NCBI GenBank assembly: GCA_964466465.1
Contig: CAYXNJ010000003.1
Coordinates: 960-64,959 of the forward strand
Length of the DNA stretch: 64,000 nt
Reading direction: 5' to 3'
From: an uncultured Sulfurospirillum sp.
Lineage (GTDB): Bacteria; Campylobacterota; Campylobacteria; Campylobacterales; Sulfurospirillaceae
Below the pieces are notes generated by a model. It searched no databases, had not been told where the DNA came from, and was given only the letters and a program-made list of their open reading frames with translations. Shown in pieces: positions 1 through 19,002 of the stretch; positions within the stretch are counted from its first letter, which is position 1; each line of letters starts with the position of its first letter. The translations under genes were made by a program, and so were the position numbers.

Positions 1-527
1 ATCTCTTCCGATGGTTTCATTTTTGAAAAACGAACTCGTTCATAACACGCCCAACAACGATCCGTTAAAAATACACGATGCTTTGGACAAGCATTATAAA
101 AAAGATACCGCCATTGCTTACGCCAATACGGTTGTGAATCTTCAGCTAGACACTTTGGACAAAACATCAGTCCATAGTGTGTTCGCTTATCTTTGAGTTT
201 TCGAATTTGCTTTGGCGGGTATAGGGTGACACTATCTCCCTCAAAAAGATACCCTTCTTCGCTGCGTAGGCTTAATGACTGGAGTGTTTGCACATTCAAG
301 TGGCATTTGGAGGCAAGCTGGCTTATCAATGCCTTAGTGTCATTAAAATCTAAGTCTATACGACTAAGTGCACTGCCATCATGTTTGATAAACAAAGAAA
401 GGAAGGTTGTTAGAGAATAGCCATGAGCGAAAGCCGTTCGTGTTAACCATGAACTCAACAGTTCATTAGGATAAGGATGAGGAATGATTAAGCAATCATA
501 CCCATCAACCCATCCCTTACGTCTCAT
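1..527 (-). CDS. tniQ: TniQ-family target-selector protein, N-terminal 175 aa (truncated by window edge; not in ORF track)
   Basis: Manual translation from ATG at 527 (ATGA overlap with tnsC stop): MRRKGWVDGYDCLIIPHPYPNELLSSWLTRTAFAHG...FCPKCLAEDSQPYWRKQWRYLFYNACPKHRVFLTDRCWAC. Shows the TniQ E-x-LSSWL-x-R motif plus CxxC/CxxH/CxxC zinc ligands; no stop codon down to base 3. Confidence 0.92.
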   Translation of the reverse strand, partial: MRRKGWVDGYDCLIIPHPYPNELLSSWLTRTAFAHGYSLTTFLSLFIKHDGSALSRIDLDFNDTKALISQLASKCHLNVQTLQSLSLRSEEGYLFEGDSVTLYPPKQIRKLKDKRTHYGLMFCPKCLAEDSQPYWRKQWRYLFYNACPKHRVFLTDRCWACYERVRFSKMKPSEE

Positions 528-1393
528 AATTTTGGTAAATACTCAATCTCAGCAGCAGTTATTCTTTCGCGACCCGATTTAATCGCTTTTACAGCTGCTT
601 TTTTCATTAAATTGACAGTCTTACCAATTAATCCTTCTGATTCTTGGTAAATAATATCCACTAAAGGTAGATTATCGGCTATATTTGATGCTTTCTTAAG
701 CGGTAAACAACTCTCATACGAAGCAAGGAATGAACGAAATTTTCTATTATTGCTCCAACGCGGTAGTTCTACTGATGGGAAGCGCGATGCAATTTCATCA
801 TTAATTGTTAAAGCAGAAAAGGCATCGCGTGTTCCTGCAAGAATAATAGCAAGAGAGAGTTTATTGCTGATGTGTTTTAAATCATTGATAAACGTTCGTT
901 GTTTATTGAGGTTGCCTGTTAATGCGCTATGAATTTCATCAATTAATATCATTTTTGTATTAAGTTTACGCAGATAATGTTCTACTAAGCGCGCTTTTTC
1001 CATAGCTTTTTCACTGACTTTATGTGGAACACATAATTCATCGAGGATGAGAGAGTAGAGTCTACCTTCATCGGGTATGGATGGGGCTTCAAAATAGATA
1101 ATTGGAATTTCATGTACTGATTCTTCTTTAGCATTTATTGTTTCAAAGGAGGCTTTATGCTTAGTATAAAATTTTTTTAAAATAGCTGTTTTACCATTAT
1201 TATAATCACTATAGACCAATAAGCCTTCATTTCTCAATTGACTTGGTTCATGAAACTTATCTTCTAATATTTCAAGAAGTTTCATTGCCGAAGCATAAGT
1301 AATCCACTGGTCTTTTTTACAATATGCTACTCTTTCTGCATCACTTTTTTCTAAATAGCTTAGGGCCGCTTTTGTGAGACGTCGACTACTCAT
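524..1393 (-). CDS. tnsC: TnsC/TniB-family AAA+ ATPase
   Basis: Walker A-like SDYNNGKT, Walker B MILIDEIH, TniB-like N-terminus (ERVAYCKKDQWITY); directly downstream of tnsB. Confidence 0.9.
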   Translation of the reverse strand: MSSRRLTKAALSYLEKSDAERVAYCKKDQWITYASAMKLLEILEDKFHEPSQLRNEGLLVYSDYNNGKTAILKKFYTKHKASFETINAKEESVHEIPIIYFEAPSIPDEGRLYSLILDELCVPHKVSEKAMEKARLVEHYLRKLNTKMILIDEIHSALTGNLNKQRTFINDLKHISNKLSLAIILAGTRDAFSALTINDEIASRFPSVELPRWSNNRKFRSFLASYESCLPLKKASNIADNLPLVDIIYQESEGLIGKTVNLMKKAAVKAIKSGRERITAAEIEYLPKL

Positions 1394-3285
1394 AATACTT
1401 CATCCACAGGGTAATAATCATACCCTTCTCTATCATCATCATCTATTTCTTGAATAATCAGCTTTTCATCACGAGATATTGGCTCTTTTTTCAAGATTTT
1501 CTCTTCGTACTCAAGTATCTTTTTCGTATGTTGCTTTGAACTATTACGCCTTAGTGTAGAACGCTTTTCGCGTTTTGCTTTTTCAACATAGGTGCTCAAT
1601 CTTTCATAACTTCTAAAAATATCATGCATCTCTAGTTCTCGCCCTATAACTTCTTTTTTTGCATCAGCAATAGATTTTCGAAGCTCTGATAAATTGATTG
1701 CTGGTTTTCGAATATCACTATAGGGGACAATAATATAATCATTAATATCTGGATCATACACATATAATTTACTAATATCTCTAGGGTCTCTTCGGAACAT
1801 GACAGATTTTGTGTGAATTTTAGCAGAGAGTTTTTTATATTCCGAAGGAACAATCCACTTCCGAAGCGTTTCAGAAAAATACGTAATGTAATCAATGGTA
1901 ATGCCATTTTTCTGAACAGTGCGCTCAAACGCTGGTAAAAGAGCCATGCGAAGCTTTATTGTATTTGCAGGGGCTGATGGCAAAAATGGAATTGTTCCAT
2001 CACCCACACCTAAAAACGCTTGGTAAAACTTTTCCTCAGGGCTCATTCCAAGCGAACTGTGTTCAGTTTTATGATAAATATTAATCACAAAATCAAGATA
2101 CCATTGCTCTAGTTCTTGAATTGTCATGCTTGCATGATATTCAGAATCATAGGTACCTTTTTGTTTTATGTTGGAGAATGTGGTTCCTGGCAATTGATGG
2201 ACTGCTTTCATATGCGTTTCAATCACACGTTCAATCATGCCACCGTATTCAGGGTGTGCCACAGGTCGGTATTGATTTTCGATGCTGTATTCTTGACAAA
2301 ACTTCTCTAATGAGGTTGAACGAAACTCTTTGGCATTATCCATGTGTACTTTGCGAGGCAAGCCATACACTGGCCATTCTCCTTGAATGTTGTGGTAATG
2401 CAGAAGATCTTCTTTGGGTAAAATCGCATTCAGTAAGCATTGTCCTACACTAAAAAAATTAATTGATTCTAATGAAATATAAAAACCGTAAATCATTCGG
2501 CTATAAACATCAATTGCAACCGTAATATTAGGTCTGCCAATCGTTTCTCTTGTAATTTCATCTACGAGCATAACATCAACTTTTGTGTGATCAATCTGAA
2601 TAATATCTAAGGGCATTTTGACTTTTGGGAATTTTCCAGGCATTCCTCTTGTATCGCGCACACTAACATTTTTACGATATTTGGCAACTAATTTTGGATG
2701 TATTTTTTTTAGACGTGTACGAATAGTATTATCAGTAGGTGGAGTTTGATTGGCATAGCGACACTTTTCAACTATTTTTTGATAGATAACTGAAATAGGA
2801 TATTGTTGCTCATCCAAATAAAAATCTTCAAACACAGACTCAATAATTGCCTCAACAGATTTATCTAGGCGTCCTTTCAATTTTCCACCACAATTTTTAT
2901 ATGCCGTTGCCAATGAACTCACTGTTCCATAGGTTTCATATTTCTCTAGCCATCGATAAATAGTAGCCACCCCTTTGCTATGCTTATCGGCGACTGCTTG
3001 TATATCTTGTGTTGATCGTTTTTCAATATCAAGTAGTGGTTTTATAATATGATATCTCTCTAGTGCCTTTTTGTATTCTTTGTCATCCAAATCAACTAGA
3101 TGCTCAACCTTTGAAGTTGCATTTTTGGATTCTTTGATAAGTGTATTCACCTTAACAATGCACTCTTTATAAGGCTTTTCAACAGATTTCAAAAGCACTT
3201 CATTAAATGATGAATACGCTTTAATCGTGTAAAGTTTATCTTGATGAAACACGCTTGTGCCAATTTTAAAGCTAATAACGTTCAT
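1390..3285 (-). CDS. tnsB: TnsB/TniA Mu-family DDE transposase
   Basis: 631 aa; IQIDHT, HMDNAKEF and GGMIER DDE motifs; HTH-like region (VATIYRWL); C-terminal RDPRDIS Mu-transposase motif. Confidence 0.93.
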   Translation of the reverse strand: MNVISFKIGTSVFHQDKLYTIKAYSSFNEVLLKSVEKPYKECIVKVNTLIKESKNATSKVEHLVDLDDKEYKKALERYHIIKPLLDIEKRSTQDIQAVADKHSKGVATIYRWLEKYETYGTVSSLATAYKNCGGKLKGRLDKSVEAIIESVFEDFYLDEQQYPISVIYQKIVEKCRYANQTPPTDNTIRTRLKKIHPKLVAKYRKNVSVRDTRGMPGKFPKVKMPLDIIQIDHTKVDVMLVDEITRETIGRPNITVAIDVYSRMIYGFYISLESINFFSVGQCLLNAILPKEDLLHYHNIQGEWPVYGLPRKVHMDNAKEFRSTSLEKFCQEYSIENQYRPVAHPEYGGMIERVIETHMKAVHQLPGTTFSNIKQKGTYDSEYHASMTIQELEQWYLDFVINIYHKTEHSSLGMSPEEKFYQAFLGVGDGTIPFLPSAPANTIKLRMALLPAFERTVQKNGITIDYITYFSETLRKWIVPSEYKKLSAKIHTKSVMFRRDPRDISKLYVYDPDINDYIIVPYSDIRKPAINLSELRKSIADAKKEVIGRELEMHDIFRSYERLSTYVEKAKREKRSTLRRNSSKQHTKKILEYEEKILKKEPISRDEKLIIQEIDDDDREGYDYYPVDEVL

Positions 3286-3940
3286 GATTTATCCAAACTA
3301 GTGAATTCATTGTCAATTCATCTTGATAAAAATCTGTGCATAATTTTCCATTGGACACTAGGCTCCAAATAGCATTTGCAACTTGCAAATATTCCATCTT
3401 GGATTGAGCAATCAAGTTAGCTAATTGAAAAGCAGTCATAGGTTCTTTTGCAAAATCCAAAATTTTTTCATCATTTCTAGTATCTAATGATTGTGTTTTA
3501 TAGCGATATAAGAAGTCAAGATTTTCAATATAACTTTTTGGAAAAGTTTCATCAGTGTAGAGTATAAATTCCATTCCCATATATTCTACGGATGCTTGAA
3601 TACTTTTAAACTTTTGTTCAAATTTTTCTTTGTCTTTATTGATTTCAGTAAGATATTTCACTTCAACGATAGTCTCTTTTTTCAAAGTATCTTTGCAATA
3701 TTTAATGAGGCAATCAGCACTGTATGTTCGTATACTACCATCATAATCAATTTTAAGTTGTGGCTGTTCTATGTAAGTTTCTACTGAGTTGTCAAATTCT
3801 AGCGTCAAGAAGAGACTTCTTTCCAGAAGTGACTCAAAAGCTATAGAGGATTTATTTTTTACACTTGGGAAAGATCCTGTAACAGAGCGATAATTTTTTG
3901 TTATTTTACGCTGAGAAAATACTTTATGATCTGCTTCCAT
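3272..3940 (-). CDS. tnsA: TnsA endonuclease (PD-(D/E)xK fold)
   Basis: RKITKNYRSVTG, FESLLE, EQP, YSADCLI and VEVKY motifs; start moved to ATG 3940, which follows AAGGAG (the track start at 4012 is a TTG inside a TnsB site). Confidence 0.88.
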   Translation of the reverse strand: MEADHKVFSQRKITKNYRSVTGSFPSVKNKSSIAFESLLERSLFLTLEFDNSVETYIEQPQLKIDYDGSIRTYSADCLIKYCKDTLKKETIVEVKYLTEINKDKEKFEQKFKSIQASVEYMGMEFILYTDETFPKSYIENLDFLYRYKTQSLDTRNDEKILDFAKEPMTAFQLANLIAQSKMEYLQVANAIWSLVSNGKLCTDFYQDELTMNSLVWINHERY

Positions 3941-3964
3941 GGCTGATATTATCTCCTTTGGATA

Positions 3965-3973
3965 ATTATACCA
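3965..3973 (-). promoter_or_regulatory. Extended -10 (TGnTATAAT) for the tns operon
   Basis: TGGTATAAT on the minus strand just upstream of the tnsA RBS. Confidence 0.55.
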
Positions 3974-4004
3974 CTTAATCAAGAAAAATATTTTATTTCT
4001 GCGC

Positions 4005-4153
4005 ATTATCAAACTTTAATGCAAATATATTAGACTATTTTTTTTTAAACAAACCTGCTTTACTTACAATTGTTAATCTCAGCCAATATAAAAATAGTGT
4101 ACAATGGAACAAAATATGAAAATATAGATTATCAAACTTTATTTATATCAACA
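4005..4153 (-). repeat. Transposon end: TGTTGATA terminus plus two TnsB-binding repeats
   Basis: Plus-strand ATTATCAAACTTTA occurs at 4005-4018 and 4128-4141; the outer copy is followed by TTTATATCAACA ending at 4153. Confidence 0.8.
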
Positions 4154-4263
4154 TATTTAATAAAAAATAAAATTGTAACAAATAGTTAATGACGTACATC
4201 ATAGATTCTTAATAAAAGATGCGATAAAATTGTCACAAATTAAACTACACGAAAGGAAAAAGA

Positions 4264-4770
4264 ATGGCTGTTGAACAAAGCAGAAGAGACTTTATCGGCA
4301 TGGCATTCGGCGGTTTTGCAGCGGCGGGTGGCGTAGTAGCCCTTGGCGCTATGAAAAAGACTTGGGATCCACTTCCAAGTGTACAATCTGCTGGATTCAT
4401 CACCGTTGACCTCTCTCCAATGAAAGAAGGGGAAGTCCAAACGATCCAATGGAGGGGCAAACCTATTTTCATTTTGAAGAAAAGTGCAGATATGCAAAAG
4501 AATGAGAAACGTGACGTTGTTGCGGGTAAGAACAGCTATACCGTTGTCATTGGTCTTTGCACACACCTTGGATGTATTCCAACATGGACACCTGCGACCA
4601 AGCAATTCAAATGCGCCTGTCATGGTGGCGAGTTTGACGCTAGTGGCGTAAACACTTTCGGTCCTCCTCCACGCCCTATGGATATTCCTCCATTTAAAAT
4701 TGATGGTGAGAAACTTGTCCTTGGTGAAGAAGGTCCTGAGTATAAAAAGCTAACAGCTAAAAAAGCGTAA
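4264..4770 (+). CDS. petA: Rieske Fe-S subunit of menaquinol:cytochrome c reductase
   Basis: Tat signal SRRDF; CTHLGC and CACHG Rieske motifs. Confidence 0.97.
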   Translation: MAVEQSRRDFIGMAFGGFAAAGGVVALGAMKKTWDPLPSVQSAGFITVDLSPMKEGEVQTIQWRGKPIFILKKSADMQKNEKRDVVAGKNSYTVVIGLCTHLGCIPTWTPATKQFKCACHGGEFDASGVNTFGPPPRPMDIPPFKIDGEKLVLGEEGPEYKKLTAKKA

Positions 4771-6038: not shown

Positions 6039-6904
6039 GAGAATTAAAAATATTAGCGGTTGTAATCTTCTTTACAGCTGTTGTGTATTGGGGCGTAGAG
6101 CCATTTGCTCATTCACAAATGCACCCTCATGTTGCTCCTGCTGATTTTACATTTAAAGATCTTGGTGCTTCTGCTAAGAAAGGTGATGCCGCAAAAGGCG
6201 CTGAAACCTTCATGAGTGCAGGCTGTATTGGTTGTCATAGTGTAAGCTCTCAAGGTATGGCTGCGCCTATGGACAATGCAAGTGCTTCTGCAAGCTTTGG
6301 TGTTACGCCACCTGATCTTAGCAGTGCAGGTGCAATCTATGATAAAAACTATTTAGCTGCGCTAATTAAAGAGCCAACAAAGGCACTTAAAGTAGAACAT
6401 AAATTCAACGAAAGTCGTCCACATCCAATGATTGCATTCTTTGGACTTGGTGGAGACATTGATCAAGAAGTAGCAGACATTGTTGCGTATCTTCAGAGTA
6501 TCGCACCTGTTGCTCCAATGGATGACAAACAAGTGTATGCAGATGCGTGTCAGAGATGTCATGATATGAAATATGACAAATTGATGAGCACTACAGATAA
6601 AGCAGCATTAATGGCATATATGGGCACCTTGCCACCAGATCTTTCAATGATGATTCGTTCAAAAGGGAAAGAGTATCTTTCAACCTTTATCAACAATCCA
6701 CAAAAACAACTTGCAGGCACTTCTATGCCTCGTGTTGGTTTGACTGAAAAAGCTCAAAATCAAGTCATCGCCTATATGGAAAAAGTAGGTGATCGCAAAA
6801 AAGCTGAAAGAGAAGACCTTGGGTATAAACTCATTGGTTATATGGTTCTCTTTACGCTTTTAGCATATGCTTGGAAAGTTAAAATCTGGAGAGAAGTTCA
6901 CTAA
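6035..6904 (+). CDS. petC: Diheme cytochrome c1-type subunit
   Basis: CIGCH and CQRCH heme motifs, PPDLS, C-terminal TM helix; ATG 6035 overlaps the petB stop. Confidence 0.95.
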   Translation: MRELKILAVVIFFTAVVYWGVEPFAHSQMHPHVAPADFTFKDLGASAKKGDAAKGAETFMSAGCIGCHSVSSQGMAAPMDNASASASFGVTPPDLSSAGAIYDKNYLAALIKEPTKALKVEHKFNESRPHPMIAFFGLGGDIDQEVADIVAYLQSIAPVAPMDDKQVYADACQRCHDMKYDKLMSTTDKAALMAYMGTLPPDLSMMIRSKGKEYLSTFINNPQKQLAGTSMPRVGLTEKAQNQVIAYMEKVGDRKKAEREDLGYKLIGYMVLFTLLAYAWKVKIWREVH

Positions 6905-6947
6905 GAACTTTTGACTCGTTTTAAGCGCCTTTATACTGCCTCTTTTC

Positions 6948-6974
6948 GACTCTTAGGTCAATCACCTAAGAGTC
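6948..6974. terminator. Hairpin after petC
   Basis: GACTCTTAGGT-caatc-ACCTAAGAGTC. Confidence 0.6.
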
Positions 6975-7050
6975 CTGCCTTTTATATAGAATTGATACTA
7001 TAAATGTTCATATCTGCGACGCAAAAATGGTTTTAAAAAAGGAGGAACTT

Positions 7051-7455
7051 ATGAAAAAATACACACTATTACTTACTTCTCTCGCTCTATGTAGCGCTCT
7101 TCATGCCTCAGAGGCTGAAAAAGTCAACGCAATGGTAATGCTCAATATGGAAAATGGTTTGGCAAATATTCAAAAAGGCTTTTTATACAACAATCTTGAT
7201 TTGATTAAAAGTGGTGTTGATATTGTTCAAAAAGAGAATGCAACGTATCATAATCGAGAAGTTATAAAGTCGATTTTGCCTGATAATAAAAAACAGATGG
7301 AAAATTTAGCACTTATTACATCAAAACGTATTGAAAATGCTGCAGATGAAATGAAAAGCTACTTGGCACTTAAACAGATGAAAAAAGCTCATAATGCCTT
7401 TTCAGATATGGTAAATGCTTGTACAGATTGTCATACACTTATTCGTGGTTGGTAA
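7051..7455 (+). CDS. Periplasmic class II (cytochrome c'-like) monoheme cytochrome c
   Basis: Signal peptide, helical body, C-terminal CTDCH; GGAGG RBS before ATG 7051. Confidence 0.75.
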   Translation: MKKYTLLLTSLALCSALHASEAEKVNAMVMLNMENGLANIQKGFLYNNLDLIKSGVDIVQKENATYHNREVIKSILPDNKKQMENLALITSKRIENAADEMKSYLALKQMKKAHNAFSDMVNACTDCHTLIRGW

Positions 7456-7479
7456 GTAATTTACGTAGAAAAGAAGTAA

Positions 7480-7506
7480 AACGCTAAGAGAAAATCTCTT
7501 AGCGTT
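7480..7506. terminator. Bidirectional hairpin between convergent cytochrome c gene and accA
   Basis: AACGCTAAGAGA-aaa-TCTCTTAGCGTT. Confidence 0.7.
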
Positions 7507-8437
7507 CCTCATATGCTCCAATAGAAGTAATTCTCTCATAACGCTTTGCCATTCTCTCATCGGGACTCAGTTTATCAAGTTCTTCTAAAGATTTTAAGAA
7601 ATACTCTCCAAGTGCTTTGGCTGCGCTCTCTTTATCACGATGTGCTCCAATAAGTGGCTCATCAATAATTGCATCAATTAGGTTTAACTGGTGTAAGTCT
7701 TCAGCTGTAATTTTCATCGCTTTAGTCGCATTTTCTTGCTTACTTGGGTCATTCCATAAAATAGCGGCACAACCCTCTGGAGAAATAACAGAAAAGACAG
7801 AGTAACGCATCATAGCGACACGATCGCTCACACCAATAGCGAGCGCTCCACCACTTCCACCTTCTCCAATCACAACAGAAACACTTTTTGTGTTAAGACG
7901 ACTTAACTCAAAAAGGTTCTTAGCAATCGCTTCACTTTGCCCTCTCTCTTCTGCAGCAATACCAGGATAAGCACCTGGAGTGTCAATTAAGAAAAGAATT
8001 GGAAGATCAAATTTTTCTGCCATTTTAGCAATTCTAAGTGCTTTACGATAACCCTCGGGATGCGGCATACCAAAATTTCGTTTAATTTTATTTTTCGTAC
8101 CGCGACCTTTTTGCTCACCAATGACAAGCACTTTTCGTTCGCCAATATACCCGATGTAAGCAACAATGGCAGCATCATCCGCAAAGTTACGATCACCATG
8201 AATTTCGTAGCCGTCTTTTAAAAGAGCACGAATATAATCTAATGCGTATGGACGATCAGGATGACGTGCAAGTTGCAGTTTCTGGTATTCACTTAGATTT
8301 TTATAGGTTTTAGAAATTTCTTTTGCGAGTGTTTTTTCTAAAATTTCAACGGCATGGCTATCGCCTTTGATTTTGGCGTTAGAAATATCCTCATCAATTT
8401 GTTTAATTCCATTCTCAAAATCCAAATAAGTAGCCAC
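7499..8437 (-). CDS. accA: Acetyl-CoA carboxylase carboxyltransferase alpha
   Basis: [21 protein letters not shown] and GEGGSGGAL motifs. Confidence 0.97.
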
Positions 8438-8446
8438 TAGAATTCC

Positions 8447-9658
8447 TTATACACGCTTGAAGATTACTGAGCCATTCGTTCCACCGAAACCAAACGAGTT
8501 ACTCATCGCATATTCTACTTTGCATTTACGCGCTACATTTGGAATGTAGTCAAGATCACAGTCAGGATCTGGATTTTCATAGTTAATGGTTGGAGGTAAA
8601 ATTTCATCGCGCATTGCCATAAGACAAACGACCGCTTCAATTGCACCAGCAGCACCTAAACAGTGACCAATTTGACCCTTAATAGAACTTACTGGTGGAA
8701 TATTTGCCCCAAAGACTTCTTTAATCGCTGCTGTTTCATTTTTATCATTTGCAGGTGTACTTGTACCATGCGCATTGATATAATCAATTTTAGGGAAACC
8801 AGCCATTGTATATGCTGCTTTCATCGCGCGAAGAGGACCATCTAAACTTGGAGAAGTAATGTGACTTGCATCGCCACTCTCACCGAAACCAACAACTTCA
8901 CCGTAAATATGAGCACCACGAGCAACTGCATCTTCATACAATTCAAGTACAAGAGCTCCTGCACCTTCACCCATAATAAATCCATCGCGCTCTGCATCAA
9001 ATGGACGAGAAGCTTTTTTAGGGTCATCGTTACGTGTTGAAAGTGCTTTCATAGCAGAAAAACCACCAATACCTGCTGCGCAGATTGCTGCTTCTGCACC
9101 CACAACGAGCATCTTTTTAGCGCCACCTGTCATGATTGTTTTCGTAGCATCGCTAATAGCGTGTGTACCTGCGGCACATGCTGTAACAGATGAAAGATTT
9201 GGTCCTTTTAAACCATATTCAATTGATACCATTCCACCCAGCATATTGATAAGTGCAGAAGGAATAAAAAATGGAGAAATTTTACGTGGACTTGCACTGT
9301 TTACAATCACAGAGTTTTTCTCAATAACAATAAGTCCGCCAATACCAGAAGCTGAGCTAACGCCAAATGTTTCATCAGCTTCAAATGCTTCAAACTTAGC
9401 GTCATTCATCGCTTCTTTAGCAGCAGCAAGACCTAATTGAATAAAACGATCAGCTTTTTTAACCTCTTTAGGATTCATAATCGTATTTGGATCAAAGTCA
9501 GTGATTTCACCAGCAATGGTAACAGAATGCTCGGTTGTGTCAAACGAACTAATGCTTTTAATGCCACATTGACCTTCAACGATAGCTTTAAAAGAACTCT
9601 CTTTATCCAAACCTAATGAATTAATCATTCCTATACCAGTAACAACGACTCTTTTCAA
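8447..9658 (-). CDS. fabF: Beta-ketoacyl-ACP synthase II
   Basis: RVVVTGIG, TACAAG, NAHGTST, GHCLGAAG and SNSFGFGG motifs. Confidence 0.97.
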   Translation of the reverse strand: MKRVVVTGIGMINSLGLDKESSFKAIVEGQCGIKSISSFDTTEHSVTIAGEITDFDPNTIMNPKEVKKADRFIQLGLAAAKEAMNDAKFEAFEADETFGVSSASGIGGLIVIEKNSVIVNSASPRKISPFFIPSALINMLGGMVSIEYGLKGPNLSSVTACAAGTHAISDATKTIMTGGAKKMLVVGAEAAICAAGIGGFSAMKALSTRNDDPKKASRPFDAERDGFIMGEGAGALVLELYEDAVARGAHIYGEVVGFGESGDASHITSPSLDGPLRAMKAAYTMAGFPKIDYINAHGTSTPANDKNETAAIKEVFGANIPPVSSIKGQIGHCLGAAGAIEAVVCLMAMRDEILPPTINYENPDPDCDLDYIPNVARKCKVEYAMSNSFGFGGTNGSVIFKRV

Positions 9659-9697
9659 ATTTTTATCCTCTTTAGTGATCTTTTGTGGGAAAGGGGG

Positions 9698-9715
9698 AAC
9701 CCGCCTTGGCGGGTT
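9698..9715 (-). terminator. Hairpin after acpP
   Basis: AACCCGCC-TT-GGCGGGTT. Confidence 0.5.
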
Positions 9716-9730
9716 ATATGTGTTATAAAA

Positions 9731-9961
9731 TTATTTATGTGCTTCAATGTAAGACATAGCATCTTTTACAGTGACGATTTTCTCAGCGTCAGTGTCAGGA
9801 ATTTCAATGTCAAATTTCTCTTCAAGAGCCATAACGAGTTCTACAACGTCCAAAGAATCTGCACCCAAATCTTCTACGAATTTTGTATCTTCTTTTACCT
9901 CGTCATGATTTACATTTAATTGTTCAACAACAACCGCTTTTACATCATCAAATAGTGCCAT
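9731..9961 (-). CDS. acpP: Acyl carrier protein
   Basis: [18 protein letters not shown] motif. Confidence 0.98.
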
Positions 9962-10039
9962 TTAATAGCTCCTTTAAAAAATTTCCACTATTTTATCAAA
10001 AAAACCTTTAATTTGAATTTTATGCACGTAAACTCCCGT

Positions 10040-10783
10040 TTACATGTACATACCACCATTCACTTTCAAGACTTCACCTGTGATATAACTTGCGCTATCA
10101 CTTAATAAGAAAGCAACAGATTCTGCAATATCTTTTGGACTACCAAAACGTTTAAGTGGGATTTTGGATGTATAACTTTCTTTAATTTCATCGCTTAGCT
10201 TATCGGTCATTTCTGTTGCAATAAAACCAGGTGTTACTGCATTAAAACGAACATCTCTTGCGCTTCCTTCTTGTGCAAAGCTTTTTGTCATGGCAATAAG
10301 TCCACCTTTGCTTGCACTGTAATTGACTTGACCCGCATTGCCTGTTTCACCCACGATAGAAGCGATATTCACAACTGCACCAAAACGTTTTTTGCTCATG
10401 ATTTTAAGTGCTTCACGACAACCCACAAAAGCTGAAGTAAGATTAATATCAATGACAGAGGTAAAATCCTCTTTTTTCATACGAATAGCAAGTTTGTCAT
10501 TAGTAATTCCCGCGTTATTGACAAGATAAGAAAGCTCACCATCGGCATCCACAATCGTTTTAATCCCTTCAATAAATGCTTCTTCATCCGCTACATCAAA
10601 GCCAATGACAGCAGCCACACCGCCGTTTGCTTCAATCTCAGCTTTAATTGTATCTGCCGCTTCAGGGCGAGAACGATAGTTAATCCATACTTTAAGACCA
10701 TACCCTGCCAAAGTTAATGCTAACTCTTTACCAATACCGCTTGCTGCGCCTGTAACTAAAACATTTTTTCCACTAAATTTCAT
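10040..10783 (-). CDS. fabG: 3-oxoacyl-ACP reductase
   Basis: TGAASGIG, NNAGIT and YSASK SDR motifs; fab cluster context. Confidence 0.96.
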   Translation of the reverse strand: MKFSGKNVLVTGAASGIGKELALTLAGYGLKVWINYRSRPEAADTIKAEIEANGGVAAVIGFDVADEEAFIEGIKTIVDADGELSYLVNNAGITNDKLAIRMKKEDFTSVIDINLTSAFVGCREALKIMSKKRFGAVVNIASIVGETGNAGQVNYSASKGGLIAMTKSFAQEGSARDVRFNAVTPGFIATEMTDKLSDEIKESYTSKIPLKRFGSPKDIAESVAFLLSDSASYITGEVLKVNGGMYM

Positions 10784-10805
10784 TATTAAATCCTTTTAAG
10801 TTATT

Positions 10806-12296
10806 TTAAAATTCGACTAACGGCTTATCCATTTCACTAGGAATTGGAAGTCCCATCAATTTTAAGACCGTTGGGGCGATGTTGTTCAATCCACCCTTTT
10901 CCACTTTGTTCACGCGTTTATCCATAACAAATCCATACACATCAAAGGTTGTATGGTTTGTCAATTTTGAGCCATTTTCATCAAACATTTGTTCACAATT
11001 TCCATGATCGCTTGTTAGAACAATAGAATAATCTAATTCTTTCGCTTTGGCAAACAATCTTCCAAGCTCTATATCAACGGCTTCAACAGCACAAATTGCC
11101 GCTTCCAAGCTTCCTGTATGCCCTACCATATCGCCATTGGCAAAATTGACCACAATAAAATCATAGGCTTCATCCATAGCTTTTAAAACAGCATCGCCAA
11201 CAGCTGGAGCACTCATTTGAGGTTCCAAATCATATGTTTTCACTTTTGGACTTGGAACAAGTAAACGTGTTTCATTTACTTTTGGCTCTTCAAGCCCACC
11301 ATTAAAAAAGAAAGTCACATGCGCATATTTCTCTGTCTCAGCCGTGTGAAACTGAGAGAGTCCTGCCTCTGCAACGACATCGCTCAATGTATTTTGTGGT
11401 GTATCGGCTTGAAACATGATAGGAAATGGATAGCTACTATCATACTCTGTCATGGTAATACACGTAACACCATTGAGTGTACGTGCAAACTCCGTAAATT
11501 CACTAAAGCCAATCGCTTTGGAGAGTTCTCGCATACGGTCATTTCTAAAGTTTGCAAAAACAACACCATCTTCTGCCTTCATACCTACAAAAGGCTCAAA
11601 TGCGACAGGTTCTATAAACTCATCGGTAATGCCTTTATCGTACATGTTCTGCATATATTCATTTGGAGATAAAGAGATTGTTGGTGTCGCATCAACCATC
11701 ACGCGATATCCTTGTTCTACTCTTTCCCATCTGTTGTCACGATCCATACTAAAAAAACGCCCTGAAATAGAGGCTATTGAGATCGTATCATTACAGATAC
11801 GTAACAACTGTTCAACAAAGTCCAATCCAGAGGTTGGAGAGACATCTCTACCATCTGTAATGACATGCAAATAGACTTTTTTGCCCTTAGTTGAAACAAT
11901 ACGTGCAAGGTCAATAATATGATCAATATGTGAATGAACTCCACCATCGCTTACAAGACCAATAATGTGAATAGCACCTTTCACATCTAAAAGCTGTGTC
12001 AATGCCGGATTGCAAGCGAGCGTTCCATCTTGTGCCGCCAAAGAAATTTTGACCAAGTTTTGGTACAAAATACGCCCACTGCCAATACACATATGTCCCA
12101 CTTCACTGTTGCCCATCTGGCCATCAGGAAGCCCAACACTTAAGCCCGAGGTTGCTATAAGATTGTATGGAACCTCTTTAAAAAGCTTATCGTACGTAGG
12201 TTTATGTGCTTGTGCAAACGCATTTGCGGTATTGCTACTGTTGTGACCAATACCATCAGTAATAATCAGTAATGTTTTTTGAACTTCTGGTTTCAA
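10806..12296 (-). CDS. gpmI: 2,3-bisphosphoglycerate-independent phosphoglycerate mutase
   Basis: [29 protein letters not shown] and DMVGHTG motifs. Confidence 0.96.
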
Positions 12297-12386
12297 AATG
12301 ATACCTTTTGTTATAAGCTTATAAGTAATATCTTACTAAAATGTTGCTTTTATAAAAATATATCCCAAAACTTTGGAACGTTATTA

Positions 12387-13451
12387 ATGCTATATTCTTT
12401 CTATAAACTTATGTCCATCAATCTTTTTCAATATATTACTGTTCGTGCAGGAATCGCCTTCTTTTTAGCCTTCATTTTAACCATCTATTTGATGCCAAAA
12501 TTTATCAAATGGGCAAAATCACGCAACGCCAATCAACCTATTTATTCCCTAGCCCCTCAAACACATCAACAAAAGTCTAAAACCCCAACCATGGGCGGTA
12601 TCGTCTTTTTATGTGCCGCAACGCTTTCTATTTTAATGTGTGCGCGTATGAATAACCTTTTTGTTCTCTCAGCGCTAGCGTGTATTTTACTGTTTGGGCT
12701 TATTGGGATGAAAGATGATCTTGCTAAAATTTTAGGCAAAAGCAATACCGCAGGGCTTACACCTCGTGCCAAACTAGGTTTTCAAATTTTAGCATCTTCT
12801 ATTGTTGCGCTCATTTTATACATTGCTGTTGATCTTGATACTACTTTTTTTGTTCCATTTTACAAATTTCCACTCTTTGATATGCAGCTCTTAGCATTAG
12901 GTTTTTGGGTTTTAGTCATGATCTCTGCGAGTAATGCGGTAAACCTGACCGATGGACTCGATGGACTTGCAACGGTTCCAGCGATACTTTCTATTCTTTC
13001 ACTTGCTGTTTTTGTTTATGTGGGTGGCAATGCCTTCTTAAGCGGTTATTTACTCCTTCCAAAAGTTGGAGGCAGTGGTGAAGTGGTCATCGTAGCAACC
13101 GCTGTTATGGGCTCATTAGTGGGCTTTTTATGGTTTAACTGCTACCCAGCAGAAATTTTTATGGGCGATAGCGGAAGTCTTAGTATTGGGGCATTTATCG
13201 GTTATATGGCGATCATCTCTAAAAATGAGATTCTATTATTGCTTATCGGTTTTGTCTTTGTTTTAGAAACCGTTTCAGTTATTTTGCAGGTGGGAAGTTT
13301 TAAAACACGTAAAAAACGTATCTTCCTTATGGCGCCAATTCATCACCACTTTGAAGTGAAAGGTTGGCCAGAAAACAAGATTATCGTGAGATTTTGGATT
13401 ATCGCTCTCATGTCAAATCTTTTAGCACTTACGGCACTTAAAATCAGATGA
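12387..13451 (+). CDS. mraY: Phospho-N-acetylmuramoyl-pentapeptide transferase
   Basis: [27 protein letters not shown] and MAPIHHHFE motifs; start moved to ATG 12387 to avoid overlap with gpmI. Confidence 0.96.
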
Positions 13452-14641
13452 TAACACTATTTGGACACGGAAAAACAACTAAGGCTATTGCAAAGCGTTT
13501 TGCAGGACAATGCCAAATTTTTGATGATAATTTTGTCACAAAAGAGACAGATGCGTTTGGTAATCTCTTATTACCTCCTTCAGAATTCGATCCTAATACA
13601 AGCGATGTAGAGATCCCAAGCCCAGGCTTTCCAACCAATCATCCTTTAATTCAAAAGGCATTGCACGTTACAAGTGAATATGACTTTTTTAAAGAGCAAA
13701 TGCCCTTTTCTATTTGGATCAGCGGAACCAATGGTAAAACGACTACCACACAAATGTGTGAATTTCTCCTTCAAAAACAAGGTGCCCTTGCAGGTGGAAA
13801 TATCGGGACACCCCTAGCAGAACTAAGTGAAAATGCACCAATTTGGATACTTGAGACCAGCTCATTTACGTTTCACTATACAAAAGTCACAGCACCCGAT
13901 ATTTACCTACTGCTTCCTATCAAGCCTGACCATTTAACATGGCATGGAAGCATGGAAGCGTACATTGAAGCGAAACTTTCACCACTTTCTCGTATGCGAG
14001 AAGGAAGCGTTGCGATTCTTCCTAAAGCACATGCAGATGTTAAAACACTCGCACATGTTATTTCCTATGAAAATGAACATGATTTGGCAGAAACAATGGG
14101 TATTGATATTTCAAAAGTAAATTTTAAAACGCCATTTTTACTGGATGCAATTCTTGCTATGAGTGCACAAAAAGTTCTCTTAGATACTGTTGACTATGAG
14201 CTTATCAATACATTTAAAATTGACCATTATAAAATTGAAGAATTTCGTGATAACCAAGGTCGCCTTTGGGTGGATGACTCTAAAGGAACCAATGTTGATG
14301 CCACAATAGAAGCTCTTAAGCGTTATAAAGACGATGAAATTCTGATTGTTTTAGGCGGTGATGACAAAGGTGTTGACCTGCAAGAGCTCTTTGACTTTAT
14401 GCAACCTTTGCGTGTGACTATCTTTGCAATAGGTTCTAACACTGAAAGACTTGCATCTTTTGCCCAAAAAGATGGCATTAAACTTCATAAATGTTTTGTG
14501 ATCGAAGAGGCAATGAAACAAATTCATGCCGTTCATACCACTCAAAGCGTCGCTCTACTTTCCCCTGCAGCAGCAAGTTTGGACCAGTTCAAATCGTATG
14601 CTCACAGAGGTGATCGCTTTAAAGAATTAGCTTTAGCCTAG
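13448..14641 (+). CDS. murD: UDP-MurNAc-L-Ala:D-Glu ligase
   Basis: [21 protein letters not shown] and [10 protein letters not shown] motifs. Confidence 0.95.
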
Positions 14642-14693
14642 TTATAAGCTAGGCTTAAAGTTTTTAAGCTATAATTTCAACTCTTCAAAGCGT

Positions 14694-14769
14694 GGCTGGA
14701 TAGCTCAGTCGGTAGAGCAGGAGACTGAAAATCTCCGTGTCGGCGGTTCGATTCCGTCTCCAGCCACCA
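14694..14769 (+). tRNA. tRNA-Phe (GAA)
   Basis: GGCTGGA/TCCAGCC acceptor stem, anticodon loop CTGAAAA, GTTCGATTC T-arm, encoded CCA; 76 nt. Confidence 0.97.
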
Positions 14770-14819
14770 CTCAAAAAAATCAATCTGCAAATTTGCATCA
14801 TCCTTATGTATTAAAAGCT

Positions 14820-16625
14820 TTATGATTTAACCACACCCAAATCAACACACGCAATATGGCTTGGAGATGTCTTAGCACTCTTTTTCAACACCCCAAAAAT
14901 TTCGTTTAACTCGTTATCATCCAAATCATGCTGATACCCAAAACCATGACAAATGACCGCTGCACTAACCGTCATAAGAGGAAAAGGCTGAATCACGCCA
15001 TCACGGTTCTTTGCCATAATGTAGCCAGAATTGAGCCCTTGTTCACAATAAAAACTCTTAATATCTTCTGCAAACTTCGTGACTATTTCTGACACAATGC
15101 CATAGACTTTCTCAAAGGTATCTTCCTCTTTGAGACTCCAGCCCAAAAAAAAGTCATCGCCACCCACATGACCCACCAAACACTCATCAAACCCTACAGA
15201 ACTTTTCAAGATGTCAGCAAACAGGGTAATCGCACGGTCTCCTTTGCGAAATCCATAATAATCATTAAACGGTTTGAAGTTATCAAAGTCAAAATACGCC
15301 ATCATCACTTTCTCTTTACCATCCATCGCATTAGCGACAAATTCATTGATGATGCGATTGCCTGCAAGCCCTGTGAGCGGATTTTGGTCTTTAGCATCAA
15401 CGATATTCTTTTCATTCACAATGTCTAACAGCACTTTGGAACTAAGATAACCTACATATTTTTCATTTTCAGTAATTAAAATCGCATCATTATCATCATC
15501 AAAGGCATAGATTTTCAAGATTTTTTCGATGGGATCATTGATGTCCGCTCTGCCACAATGCGAGATAATCTTTTTGAGGCTTCCTTGTGTGAGATTATAC
15601 AAAAGAGCCTTGCCATAATTGGAGTAGATATACGCTTTTATATCGGTATCTTTAATGATACCAAGCGGTGTCATATCACGCGCTAACACAGGTACAAAGT
15701 GCGTCTTTTTATCGGCTTTAAGCACTTCATACACTTCATTGATATGTGAATCTACAAACACCGTATGACTTTTTTGCAGGTACTTCTCAATATTGGTAAT
15801 TTTGCCACTTTTGCGTTTGTCGTGTTGCGAAACATATTTGAGATGCTCATACGAAGAGATGATTTCGTTAACATCTCTGGTAGGCTTTTGTACGAAATAG
15901 CCTTGCACCATATTGCATCCTAGTTTTTTACACTCGATGTACTCCTCTTCACACTCTACGCCTTCCGCAATCGTGAAAATGCCCATCGCTTGGGCAATTT
16001 GAACGATGGAACTGACAAAAAGCTTCTTCTTTTTACTGAGATGAATTTCGCTGATAAAAAAACGGTCTATCTTGATGAAATTAGGATCGGCATTAAACAG
16101 CATTTGAAGCCCTGAAAAGCCTACACCAAAATCATCAATCGCCATCTTGTAACCTTGTTGTTTGTAAAGGTTCAGCACTAACTTATCAACACCTGCATAC
16201 ATACCCACTTGGTGTTTTTCGGAGAGTTCAAAACAGATGTTGGATGTGTCCATCTCATAGGTTGAAAGCAGTTCACACGTGTAACCTGACTTAAAATCGG
16301 GCATCATGGTGATGCGGTTGTCTAGGTTGTAAAAAAGTTTGATATGTTTGGAAAAAGGAAGAAGTGAAAATTTATGAATGGCTTTTTCGCGCAGTATCAC
16401 ATCAATCGCATAGAGCGTTTTTTCACTGTATGCTGTATCAAATATGCAGTCAATTGTCGTAAATCCAGCAGGCTCATAATTACGAATCAGTGCTTCTACG
16501 GCATAAAGTTTACCTGTATAAATATTGACAATGGGTTGAAAGGCAAAATCAGCAACTTCTATAAGCTTTTGCCATTTTTCGTTGAGCATTACGTACAAAT
16601 CCTTCATTGCAAATGAAGAAATCAT
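14820..16625 (-). CDS. EAL-(CBS-like)-GGDEF c-di-GMP signalling protein
   Basis: AFQPIV..EAL and AIDDFG in the N-terminal half; DFDNFKPFND..G...GD and GGDDF at the C-terminus; CBS-like middle (VPVL, ITENEKYVG). Confidence 0.88.
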   Translation of the reverse strand: MISSFAMKDLYVMLNEKWQKLIEVADFAFQPIVNIYTGKLYAVEALIRNYEPAGFTTIDCIFDTAYSEKTLYAIDVILREKAIHKFSLLPFSKHIKLFYNLDNRITMMPDFKSGYTCELLSTYEMDTSNICFELSEKHQVGMYAGVDKLVLNLYKQQGYKMAIDDFGVGFSGLQMLFNADPNFIKIDRFFISEIHLSKKKKLFVSSIVQIAQAMGIFTIAEGVECEEEYIECKKLGCNMVQGYFVQKPTRDVNEIISSYEHLKYVSQHDKRKSGKITNIEKYLQKSHTVFVDSHINEVYEVLKADKKTHFVPVLARDMTPLGIIKDTDIKAYIYSNYGKALLYNLTQGSLKKIISHCGRADINDPIEKILKIYAFDDDNDAILITENEKYVGYLSSKVLLDIVNEKNIVDAKDQNPLTGLAGNRIINEFVANAMDGKEKVMMAYFDFDNFKPFNDYYGFRKGDRAITLFADILKSSVGFDECLVGHVGGDDFFLGWSLKEEDTFEKVYGIVSEIVTKFAEDIKSFYCEQGLNSGYIMAKNRDGVIQPFPLMTVSAAVICHGFGYQHDLDDNELNEIFGVLKKSAKTSPSHIACVDLGVVKS

Positions 16626-16663
16626 ACTCTCAAGCGATTACTAAATCATTACATTTAGAAACT

Positions 16664-17260
16664 TTAGTCGCAGTTTTCCACACACATTTTATGCGGTATC
16701 ACTTGTCCCCCACAGCCCACAAAGCAGTTATCATAGCTTTGCTCACAGCCACAGTTGGTCGTACAAAAGCTTTGTTGGTTAACTAAAATTTGCTCAAACG
16801 TTGGGCGAGATGGAACCCATGGTTCACGAGGTCTATCATGGCTTAAGCGGTTCATGTAGTGGCGTAATTCATCGCGTTTTTTACACGCATAAGAATCTTT
16901 GTCGCGCTCACACTTGCTTTGATAATGACTTAAATCCCGACTGTAATCGTAATAATCTCTCTGCCAACGGTGCATCTCCATTTGGTAAAAGCTATAATTC
17001 ATTTGATAACGACTGTATGCTACCTCATAGGCACGTTGCTCATCAATCTCCACTGCTTTTGCCTTTGCATAGGCATCATCAAGACAATATTGATAATTTT
17101 GTTGACATATATTTTGGCAATTTTGACGGATGAGAGAACAGTTGTTTAAACACGACTGAGACATCGAAGAAGCGGGAGGAATGTACTGATTTTTAATCAC
17201 ATAACGAGGACCACACCCAACAAAAAATAGTGCAGCTAACAACAAAAATACATACTTCAT
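16664..17260 (-). CDS. Cysteine-rich lipoprotein of unknown function
   Basis: Lipobox FVGC; 15 Cys; long Tyr/Gln-rich helical middle. Confidence 0.75.
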   Translation of the reverse strand: MKYVFLLLAALFFVGCGPRYVIKNQYIPPASSMSQSCLNNCSLIRQNCQNICQQNYQYCLDDAYAKAKAVEIDEQRAYEVAYSRYQMNYSFYQMEMHRWQRDYYDYSRDLSHYQSKCERDKDSYACKKRDELRHYMNRLSHDRPREPWVPSRPTFEQILVNQQSFCTTNCGCEQSYDNCFVGCGGQVIPHKMCVENCD

Positions 17261-17320
17261 CGAACCTCTTTTAAACGTTTTGGCGTATTATAGGGTAAAA
17301 TTGTGAAGTTTTGGTGAAAA

Positions 17321-18112
17321 TTAGGGCTGAAGCATCTCTCCTCTAAGATAATTCGCCACAATACGATCATACATGCTACTTCCTTTGCCATCAGGCTCTT
17401 TAAGACGATTAAACTGTGCTTGCATGATGTTAAATTGCTCTTTAGGAATCTCTTTACCCACACATATATAATAATCTGTATTGAGAATCACATGTGCCAT
17501 TTTGTATTGGGAAATATCTTGTCCTTCTGTAATGAGATGATAGACAAAAGGAACATCGGTATAAACAAGTGCATCAATTCTGCCATACTCCAACATTTTA
17601 TACGCCTGAATCGGTGTTGAAACACGGGTAATATTTAGCCCATGATTCGCTCCAATTTCTTTAAAAAGCAATTTCTCAGAGGAAGTCTCTTTCACCGTTG
17701 CAATCCTCAGTGGTCGTAACACTTCAACAATGGTTTGTCCTTTTGGAATTGGAGTCGATCTTTTGCTAATCAGCCCCAATCGAACCGTCGCAATGGGTCC
17801 CAGCCATTGAAATTGCTGTTCTCTTTCTTTAAGCCTGACCATGGTCACTAAAAATGATTTGGGATGTTTGAGCGCTTCATCATACATTTTATTCACAGAT
17901 TCAAGTTCTATTTCTTCTTGAGAAAAACGTGGTCTTACATTGACAAGACTTGCCTCTAAAAGATCGATACTTAAACCTTGAACAGCACCTTTCTCTCGAA
18001 AACTAAACGGGGGATTTGGTACGGCGTACAGTGCCGTTTCTGCGCTGAGAAGCGATGGTGTTCCCAAAAAAATGAACATTATTCCATAGAAAAGATAAGC
18101 TAAAAGACGCAT
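17321..18112 (-). CDS. Periplasmic solute-binding protein (family 3-like)
   Basis: Signal peptide; PPFSF, GLSIDLL and MLEYGRIDA motifs. Confidence 0.75.
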   Translation of the reverse strand: MRLLAYLFYGIMFIFLGTPSLLSAETALYAVPNPPFSFREKGAVQGLSIDLLEASLVNVRPRFSQEEIELESVNKMYDEALKHPKSFLVTMVRLKEREQQFQWLGPIATVRLGLISKRSTPIPKGQTIVEVLRPLRIATVKETSSEKLLFKEIGANHGLNITRVSTPIQAYKMLEYGRIDALVYTDVPFVYHLITEGQDISQYKMAHVILNTDYYICVGKEIPKEQFNIMQAQFNRLKEPDGKGSSMYDRIVANYLRGEMLQP

Positions 18113-18258
18113 TGTTGAGCCTTGTGGAGTAATTTTGAAAGGCAAAGAGTCAATAAACTTAAAAATACATTTAAAACATTATTTAAAATTGTAACACACA
18201 CAGACTTATGCGAAACTCAAAGTGTGACAAAAATGACGAAAAAAATTAGAAAACGACG

Positions 18259-18951
18259 TCACTCTTCTTTGTACGTCATGTAAGAGAGATAAACAATGTT
18301 GCTCATAGCACCGCTGCTTAAGATCATTGCCATCACAACAATCTGGTAACGTACTGCAATGAGGGGATCAACACCTGAGAGTATCTGACCTGTCATCATT
18401 CCAGGTAAAGAGACAAAGCCAACCGCTAAAAAAGAGTTGATTTGAGGCATCATGGAAGCTTTAAAGGCAATGGAGCGCGCTTTGTATTTATCGTGGTGTT
18501 CTCTCTCTTTTTCATAGCGCTCTGCAGCCAAAGAGATTGCGTTCATAGCGTTGGCATAAATCATCCCAGCAAGAGGAATAACATAGCGAGGATCAAATGG
18601 ATTGTCAAGTTCTAACACACCCCATAAAACGAGCGCTAAATTGAGTGTTCCGCCTAGTGCTATGGAAATTAAAATGACTGCATACACTTCAACATCTTTA
18701 CGATGAATATTTCGCCTTGCAATGAGGGATGCCGTCGTAATCATCACGGCAACCAAAAGCGCTAAAAGCCAAAGTGCATTGGTTTGAAAAAGGGATGTGA
18801 GTACATACCCAATCACGATCAGCTGGACGCTCATCCGAAGTGTTGCAAACGCAATTTCTGTTTTTTTGCCAACCCAGGTGTAGTAAAAAAATGCAACGAT
18901 AAAGAGTGGAGGAAGAAGATAGAGTAAGTTCAAAAGAGAAATGGTGTGCAT
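18259..18951 (-). CDS. UPF0014/FetB-like ABC permease
   Basis: RMSVQL..IGY, IPLAGMI and SLPGMMTGQILSG..P..AVRYQI motifs. Confidence 0.85.
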   Translation of the reverse strand: MHTISLLNLLYLLPPLFIVAFFYYTWVGKKTEIAFATLRMSVQLIVIGYVLTSLFQTNALWLLALLVAVMITTASLIARRNIHRKDVEVYAVILISIALGGTLNLALVLWGVLELDNPFDPRYVIPLAGMIYANAMNAISLAAERYEKEREHHDKYKARSIAFKASMMPQINSFLAVGFVSLPGMMTGQILSGVDPLIAVRYQIVVMAMILSSGAMSNIVYLSYMTYKEE

Positions 18952-19002
18952 GTAAAATCCCAAAGAACTTTGGAGAGTGCGGTTACACTCTCCAAAGTAG
19001 AA

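Follow-up and report, generated by a model that had tools for sequence, protein, structure and literature searches.

The window analysed here, a 64-kb stretch (64,000 nucleotides) of DNA from an uncultured Sulfurospirillum sp. (contig CAYXNJ010000003.1), starts inside a complete Tn7-like cut-and-paste transposon that looks mobile and that is inserted in the last codons of mnmG (gidA). The transposon belongs to a family that is widespread in Campylobacterota. The element displays all the structural hallmarks of a Tn7-like transposon, and in all likelihood it is a conventional one with two pathways, in which TniQ targets mnmG and a TnsE homologue targets mobile DNA. Its new features would be the attachment (att) site, a terminus that rewrites the end of the target gene, and a compact target selector; mechanistically, it very probably works as Tn7 does.

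Extent, genes, and junctions of the element

The tns operon lies on the minus strand at the left edge of the window. The original prediction, made from the sequence of the window alone, had proposed an intact TnsA-TnsB-TnsC-TniQ element in a member of the Campylobacterota, which is borne out by open frames and by Pfam matches for all four proteins. The gene tnsA (3272-3940) encodes an endonuclease subunit of 222 aa with a match to Tn7_TnsA-like_N (PF08722) of 38.6 bits, for which the Pfam cut-off is 26.5 bits. It is followed by tnsB (1390-3285), encoding a DDE transposase of 631 aa with matches to Mu-transpos_C (48.6 bits) and to rve (29.9 bits, just under the Pfam cut-off), by tnsC (524-1393), encoding a short TniB-type AAA+ regulator of 289 aa (Pfam TniB, 189.6 bits), and by the first 175 codons of tniQ (1-527), whose frame is open to base 1 (Pfam TniQ, 98.2 bits, E 8.8e-28). 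Judged by these scores, the four matches to tns proteins cannot be chance. The genes are coupled by overlaps of 14 bp between tnsA and tnsB (3272-3285) and of 4 bp (ATGA) at each of the tnsB/tnsC and tnsC/tniQ junctions. The tnsA frame is open over 3272-4012, and translation probably starts at the ATG at 3940, which has AAGGAG upstream and is equivalent to the Met at which tnsA begins in relatives. The TnsC translation shows Walker A (NNGKT) and Walker B (LIDEIH) motifs, and an E/D/K motif in TnsA and a D-D-E motif in TnsB were seen by eye. Compared with solved structures, TnsC is closest to VchTnsC of Tn6677 (E 2e-13), TnsB matches the proteins of PseCAST (E 4e-42) and Tn6677 (E 2e-40), and TnsA matches PseCAST TnsA (E 5.8e-07).

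The missing left part of the element was taken from a 326-kb metagenome contig (L001, L108, and L110), which was found by exact-protein look-ups and shares 99.985% identity with the window over 13,285 bp. On this contig tniQ is complete (L001 12759-13937), encodes 392 aa with no premature stop, and extends to 651 bp beyond the left edge of the window; the motifs that had been read from its partial frame (NELLSSWLTR, CPKC, PYWRKQWR, CPKH, and CWAC) are all in the translation. Inverted-repeat and motif searches for the far end within L001 gave nothing, and it was reached by walking outward through a TniQ look-up, a 79-aa open reading frame (ORF), and a second look-up. The complete element measures 17,190 bp and has a G+C content of 31.4%, compared to 40.2% for the window.

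Both ends could be defined at the nucleotide level. The element had been taken to span positions 1-3940, but its right, tnsA-proximal end (4005-4153, minus strand) in fact extends to 4153 and contains spaced TnsB-site repeats, ATTATCAAACTTT, at 4005-4017 and 4128-4140. The right terminus, ...ATATCAACA (which reads ...ATTATCAAACTTTATTTATATCAACA), stops at 4153 and aligns with the termini of three relatives (L019, L018, and L011) and with the inverted left end, TGTAAAAAGAAATAAAGTTTGAGAAT. The left terminus reads TGTAAAAAG..., and the termini are thus of the TGT/ACA type. The second end is accompanied by a perfect 5-bp target-site duplication, TATTT, with one copy at 4154-4158 and the other at -13041..-13037, immediately before the left end. 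The repeat AAAGTTTGA(G/T)AAT occurs in three copies with 20-22 bp spacing at the left end, adjoining mnmG, and twice in inverted orientation, 123 bp apart, upstream of tnsA. In relatives, local alignment of left against right ends returned low-complexity AT matches only. It has been described that the end with close or overlapping TnsB sites adjoins the att sequence read by the TniQ protein (PMC11406308, section 2.6.1) and that the att-proximal side varies among Tn7-like elements (PMC11406308). The closely spaced sites facing mnmG fit this correlation.

On the left, the element begins within mnmG, 18 nt past a conserved His codon; the identity of the target gene is supported by its match to the MnmG family TIGR00136 (892 bits). 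The reading frame continues across the left junction as ...ITPAALDILHVYIKIF|CKKK* (...VYIKIF|CKKK*), in which the last four codons and the stop codon come from the transposon. When the element and one TATTT copy are removed, ...VYIKIFNKK* is restored in frame, and the displaced original tail of mnmG, AAT AAA AAA TAA (NKK*), is found at 4159-4170 on the plus strand, in frame across the reconstructed empty site. According to this reconstruction, MnmG would lose only its last three residues (NKK to CKKK). The 3′ coding end of mnmG is conserved (...SGITPAALDILH...), and the codons there include ...ISGITPAALDILH....

A TGnTATAAT-like extended -10 element (GTGGTATAATT) was also observed upstream of tnsA (3955-3995, minus strand). 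It is conserved, and relatives keep the same layout, TGATAATACGMAGAA ... TATAAT. The predicted -10 directly follows the innermost TnsB site and GCGCAGAA, an arrangement which suggests that binding of TnsB could repress tnsA transcription.

The mnmG site in relatives and selection of the target

A scan of species-representative genomes identified 17 close loci. The mnmG gene converges on the cargo end in all 8 relatives with that end in reach (9 with the element of the window), and the junction is found at the same mnmG codon and in the same orientation in 9/9 elements, one of which is offset by 1 nt. The hosts are Sulfurovum, Sulfurimonas, Halarcobacter, Aliarcobacter, Poseidonibacter, and Malaciobacter genomes. 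The TnsB proteins of the relatives are 58-65% identical to that of the window and therefore represent independent lineages. In four of the relatives (L019, L018, L011, and L010), the flank of the right end, inspected by eye, consists of a 5-bp duplication, 3-7 codons, and a stop, as would be expected of a displaced mnmG tail. The gene petA lies 1-2.5 kb from tnsA in three further genera, which fits mnmG and petA being native neighbours. The varying neighbours on the tnsA side (petA, tetR, and others) were also considered as a sign of no site specificity, a view that was rejected on the ground that the cargo-side junctions are all in mnmG.

Three of the loci deserve separate description. L006 (Malaciobacter mytili, 6500-19235) is a decayed member at the same mnmG codon, in which tnsA and the gene of the TnsE homologue are fragmented, the terminus is TCT, not TGT, and the mnmG stop codon lies within the degenerate left end. 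In L014 (Halarcobacter sp. FB10N2-1, 12859-13050), the interval from the beginning of the TnsE-homologue gene to mnmG contains two copies of the left end; they are split by 24 nt identical to the first 8 codons of that gene (ATGTCTAAAGGTAAAAGTATCATT|TGTCAAAAG...), an arrangement that apparently stems from an older copy once resident there or from a nested insertion. L024 (Sulfurospirillum sp. Kmv13, 6150-14033) contains a tnsABC-tniQ element directly upstream of petA in the opposite orientation, whose TnsB is 49% identical. It was rejected as a member of the same subfamily on account of its different end repeats (TGTATATTACATA-like, with a (AAATAAAT)n tract at the far end), a TnsC identity of 39%, and its inversion relative to petA. 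No TnsE homologue is found within reach at this locus, and an SspBCD-like cluster abuts its tnsA side.

The mechanism that we propose starts from a heteromeric transposase of TnsA and TnsB that would act on the TGT/ACA termini flanked by the repeated AAAGTTTGA(G/T)AAT sites, and the short TniB-type TnsC would link this transposase to the target selector. The 392-aa TniQ, composed of a zinc-finger core and a C-terminal helix-turn-helix (HTH), most likely recognises the 3′ coding end of mnmG and would place the insertion 18 nt past the His codon, the cargo (left) end always adjoining mnmG and itself supplying the few codons and the stop that mnmG needs. Through the TnsE homologue, the element probably has a second pathway of the Tn7 type, which leads into replicating or conjugating DNA.

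TniQ homologues of ~390 aa that are conserved over their full length are abundant in Campylobacterota. An AlphaFold2 (AF2) model of TniQ, with a mean predicted local distance difference test (pLDDT) score of 71, matches the structures of TnsD and of TniQ from type I-F3 CRISPR-associated transposons (CASTs) with probabilities of 0.97-0.99, and in the comparison with I-F3 TniQ the profile E-value is 1.8e-05 and the fold probability is 0.99. The core of TniQ as defined by Faure et al. comprises ~300 aa (PMC10293859). The present protein has ~90 further residues, which end in a conserved HTH-like segment (...VAEIVGCHFTIHKGF...).

The gene located just inside the left end encodes a 563-aa protein. 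A gene of ~565 aa occupies the corresponding position, just inside the far end, in 9/9 loci for which this junction could be reached (in L006 it is decayed), and L026, L008/L009, and L016 have a partial or complete copy in the direction of their far end. Besides tnsABCQ, it alone is conserved throughout the mnmG-inserted family, and it is the one gene that L014 (Halarcobacter), a minimal element, has in addition to tnsABCQ. The AF2 model of a relative, P0214, which is 40% identical to the protein of the window's element (mean pLDDT 73), matches the C-terminal domain of TnsE (5d17/9d5l) with a probability of 1.00 and a template modelling (TM) score of 0.62-0.65 over the whole target; the ~290 N-terminal residues of the 563-aa protein give no fold match. 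A plasmid search with TnsB returned no close family member, the best matches being below 40% identity.

Several points weigh against a two-pathway element in which TniQ reads mnmG. The 563-aa protein has no significant match in Pfam, NCBIfam, or PDB sequence or profile searches, and the Pfam TnsE_C match (E 3.7e-4) is below the cut-off and occurs in 1/7 members, so it is by fold alone that the protein appears to be a TnsE homologue. The TniQ model is of moderate quality (pLDDT 71), with its C-terminal HTH deduced from conservation and weak local fold matches. The right ends of several relatives could not be confidently aligned, and the empty sites described below were found in assembled Logan contigs, not raw reads. 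Lastly, the similarly sized TniQs of Tn6022 and I-F3 CASTs depend on a partner, which is TnsF or Cascade (PMC10293859), and for this reason it is not certain that TniQ acts alone.

The last point leads to an alternative to which we assign a rather low probability, namely that the TnsE homologue, or TniQ together with the TnsE homologue, selects mnmG and that TniQ serves only as an adaptor to TnsC, paralleling the TnsF-TniQ pair of Tn6022. The core size of TniQ, like that of the partner-dependent TniQs (PMC10293859), and the position of the conserved TnsE-homologue gene, which is always att-proximal, agree with such a division of labour, as does an N-terminal region lacking a fold match, but its C-terminal region has the fold of TnsE, and known TnsE is independent of TniQ and TnsD (PMC11406308). 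In addition, Tn6022 has a distant TnsE at the end away from its tns genes and does not use it to select its att site (PMC11014353), and TniQ has the conserved C-terminal HTH-like extension beyond the ~300-aa core. The most novel view, in which TniQ is a new kind of selector, either wholly self-sufficient through this ~90-aa extension or collaborating with the left-end TnsE homologue, seems similarly improbable to us. What the data show directly are the anatomy of the element, its ends and duplication, its specificity for site and orientation, the empty sites, and the homologies of its proteins. We favour the conventional two-pathway element and infer that mnmG is read by TniQ alone and that a plasmid pathway is directed by TnsE.

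Mobility and comparison with known systems

In three wastewater or biofilm metagenomes (X4, X13, and X8), contigs pass from ...CCAGCAGCACTGGATATTTTGCACG, at the 3′ end of mnmG, straight into the window from 4142 onward. The assembly word depth of the element in X2 and X4 is ~2-5, compared to 72-116 for petA. Because of these empty-site contigs and the low depth of the element relative to petA, we can conclude that the element is polymorphic within the populations of this organism. It could alternatively be a fixed, immobile genomic island left by a past insertion, as some decayed relatives such as L006 may illustrate. This is very unlikely, given that the copy of the window has all five tns genes intact, TGT/ACA termini, and a perfect 5-bp duplication, and that empty sites and low element depth are found in the same species. 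As a separate observation, other contigs in runs X2, X4, X5, X6, and X8 join different sequence at exactly 4153 or at ~4233-4240 (the X8 contig joining at 4153 reads ...GTTTGAAAAACTCTAGCTTTTTTTGTTTGA), and these appear to be other inserts or strain variants in the same mnmG-petA interval.

Among known systems, a resemblance to Tn6022 of Acinetobacter (AbaR-type) had been pointed out. Tn6022 shares with the present element TnsA, a TnsB of ~630 aa, a TniB-type TnsC of ~285 aa, and a TniQ of 360-390 aa encoded in one operon, as well as insertion inside a conserved gene with a 5-bp duplication (PMC11014353, PMC10293859). The proposed link holds for this architecture, including a distant TnsE homologue located at the opposite end from the tns operon, and fails for TnsF, which is absent after tniQ by Pfam annotation of the called genes, and for the att site, which is the Walker B region of comM in Tn6022 and the 3′ end of mnmG here. 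Furthermore, Tn6022 inactivates its target gene, whereas the target gene here is essentially intact. An Acinetobacter Tn6022-like plasmid element shows only 26-37% identity to the element of the window, which makes it no closer than tnsABC-tniQ elements of Geobacter, Nitrospirota, and Betaproteobacteria, with TnsB and TnsC of mostly ~31-41% identity.

A targeting module or cargo had also been expected left of the window. Defence cargo is indeed there, but no TnsF, TnsD, or cas gene was found in the element (precomputed Pfam matches of called genes, and PADLOC on 10 cargo genes), no integrase-like or tyrosine-recombinase-like domain occurs in the same Pfam matches, and no CRISPR array or mini-array is present, the sole tandem array in the element being that of the TnsB sites. 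Despite a tnsABC-tniQ order, protein sizes, and distal TnsE that resemble Tn6022 (PMC11014353) and TnsB, TnsC, and TniQ proteins closest to I-F3 CASTs among solved structures, the least likely of the alternatives, that of a Tn6022/AbaR-type element with a TnsF-like selector, a CAST, or another new targeting module left of the window, is refuted at this locus by the genes present in L110/L001, in which tniQ is followed by genes for an HTH protein, a DUF6161/AbiZ-like protein, a protein of no family, a DUF262 protein, and DndEDC.

Tn7 itself has two pathways, with TnsD at glmS and TnsE for plasmids, and the present element appears to have two as well. In both elements a housekeeping gene would be recognised at its conserved 3′ coding end, with insertion at a fixed distance and in one orientation and with closely spaced TnsB sites adjoining the recognised sequence. 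They differ in that the selector of Tn7 is the larger TnsD, with a long multi-HTH C-terminal region, compared to the 392-aa TniQ and short TnsC here, and in that Tn7 inserts downstream of the gene, whereas the present element is inserted within the gene, 11 nt before the stop codon; moreover, its att-proximal end is the one distal to tnsA. I-F3 CASTs (Tn6677 VchCAST and Tn7016 PseCAST) provide the closest solved homologues of TnsB, TnsC, and TniQ and have TniQ of similar length, but the present element is free of cas genes and a CRISPR array and its targeting to mnmG would be protein-guided. The Tn5053/Tn402 family has no TnsA, consists of TniABQ and TniR, and targets res sites, unlike the present element, which has TnsA, no resolvase, and a chromosomal att site.

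Tn7-like families are largely distinguished by their conserved homing sites, such as glmS, comM, yhiN, and tRNA genes, and a family homing to the last codons of mnmG and rewriting the end of the gene would add a new one. No mention of mnmG or gidA together with Tn7-like elements or TnsB was found in the literature searched, outside of which lie supplementary tables and subscription papers, and the main surveys of Tn7-like elements mention neither Campylobacterota hosts nor an mnmG site. Thus, the mnmG 3′ end provisionally appears to be an undescribed att site for these elements. It is in this respect that the suggestion of an undescribed targeting pathway stands; the mechanism is probably the ordinary TniQ route plus TnsE, a useful addition rather than a surprise. 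The results bear on how a core-sized TniQ recognises DNA without Cascade or TnsF. If TniQ reads mnmG alone, it would be the smallest self-sufficient protein-guided Tn7 selector, and if TniQ and the TnsE homologue cooperate, this would be a new kind of collaboration, which to our knowledge is not known in any Tn7-like element. Either way, the family would provide a compact, orientation-fixed 'safe harbour' integration system at mnmG, a tRNA-modification gene found in almost all bacteria. The five-gene system (tnsABC, tniQ, and tnsE) is a candidate site-specific integration tool for Campylobacterota, a phylum with few genetic tools.

Cargo and flanking genes

Leftward from the window, tniQ is followed in order by genes for a small HTH protein, a DUF6161/AbiZ-like protein, a 307-aa protein with no family match, a 607-aa DUF262 (GmrSD_N) protein, DndE, DndD, and DndC, two metallophosphatases, ORFs of 79 and 189 aa, and the 563-aa protein, beyond which lies mnmG. 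DndC matches TIGR03183 with 369 bits, above the cut-off. By these family assignments the cargo is predicted to be anti-phage, comprising DndCDE phosphorothioation, a DUF262 protein (GmrSD/SspE-like), AbiZ-like DUF6161, and the two metallophosphatases.

The same cargo block, from the tniQ stop through DndC, was found in L090 (contig Ga0183100_1000003, 9998-17673) at 83.6% nucleotide identity. There are no tns genes beside it, and the homology sets in 3 bp past the stop codon of tniQ. Cargo modules seem to be exchanged as units. Three other loci (L004, L008/L009, and L006) carry differing defence cargo, namely an SspBCD-SspE-like set with a kinase, an HATPase_c-Z1-DUF4420-AIPR set, and ORC/Cdc6-like proteins with HD-CE or PRTase-CE effectors. 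On the basis of these gene contents, the mnmG-inserted family probably acts as a defence-island shuttle. With its insertions, the family also makes a defence-island hotspot of the mnmG-petA interval in Campylobacterota, Aliarcobacter and Campylobacter among them.

The right end of the element lies 110 bp upstream of petA (Rieske; 4264-4770, plus strand), the first host gene on that side, which is outside the element. The remainder of the window contains ordinary-looking housekeeping genes, with petABC, accA, fabF, acpP, fabG, gpmI, and mraY near the element, and the single Rfam match in the 64 kb is a tRNA at 14694-14766 on the plus strand (70.7 bits).

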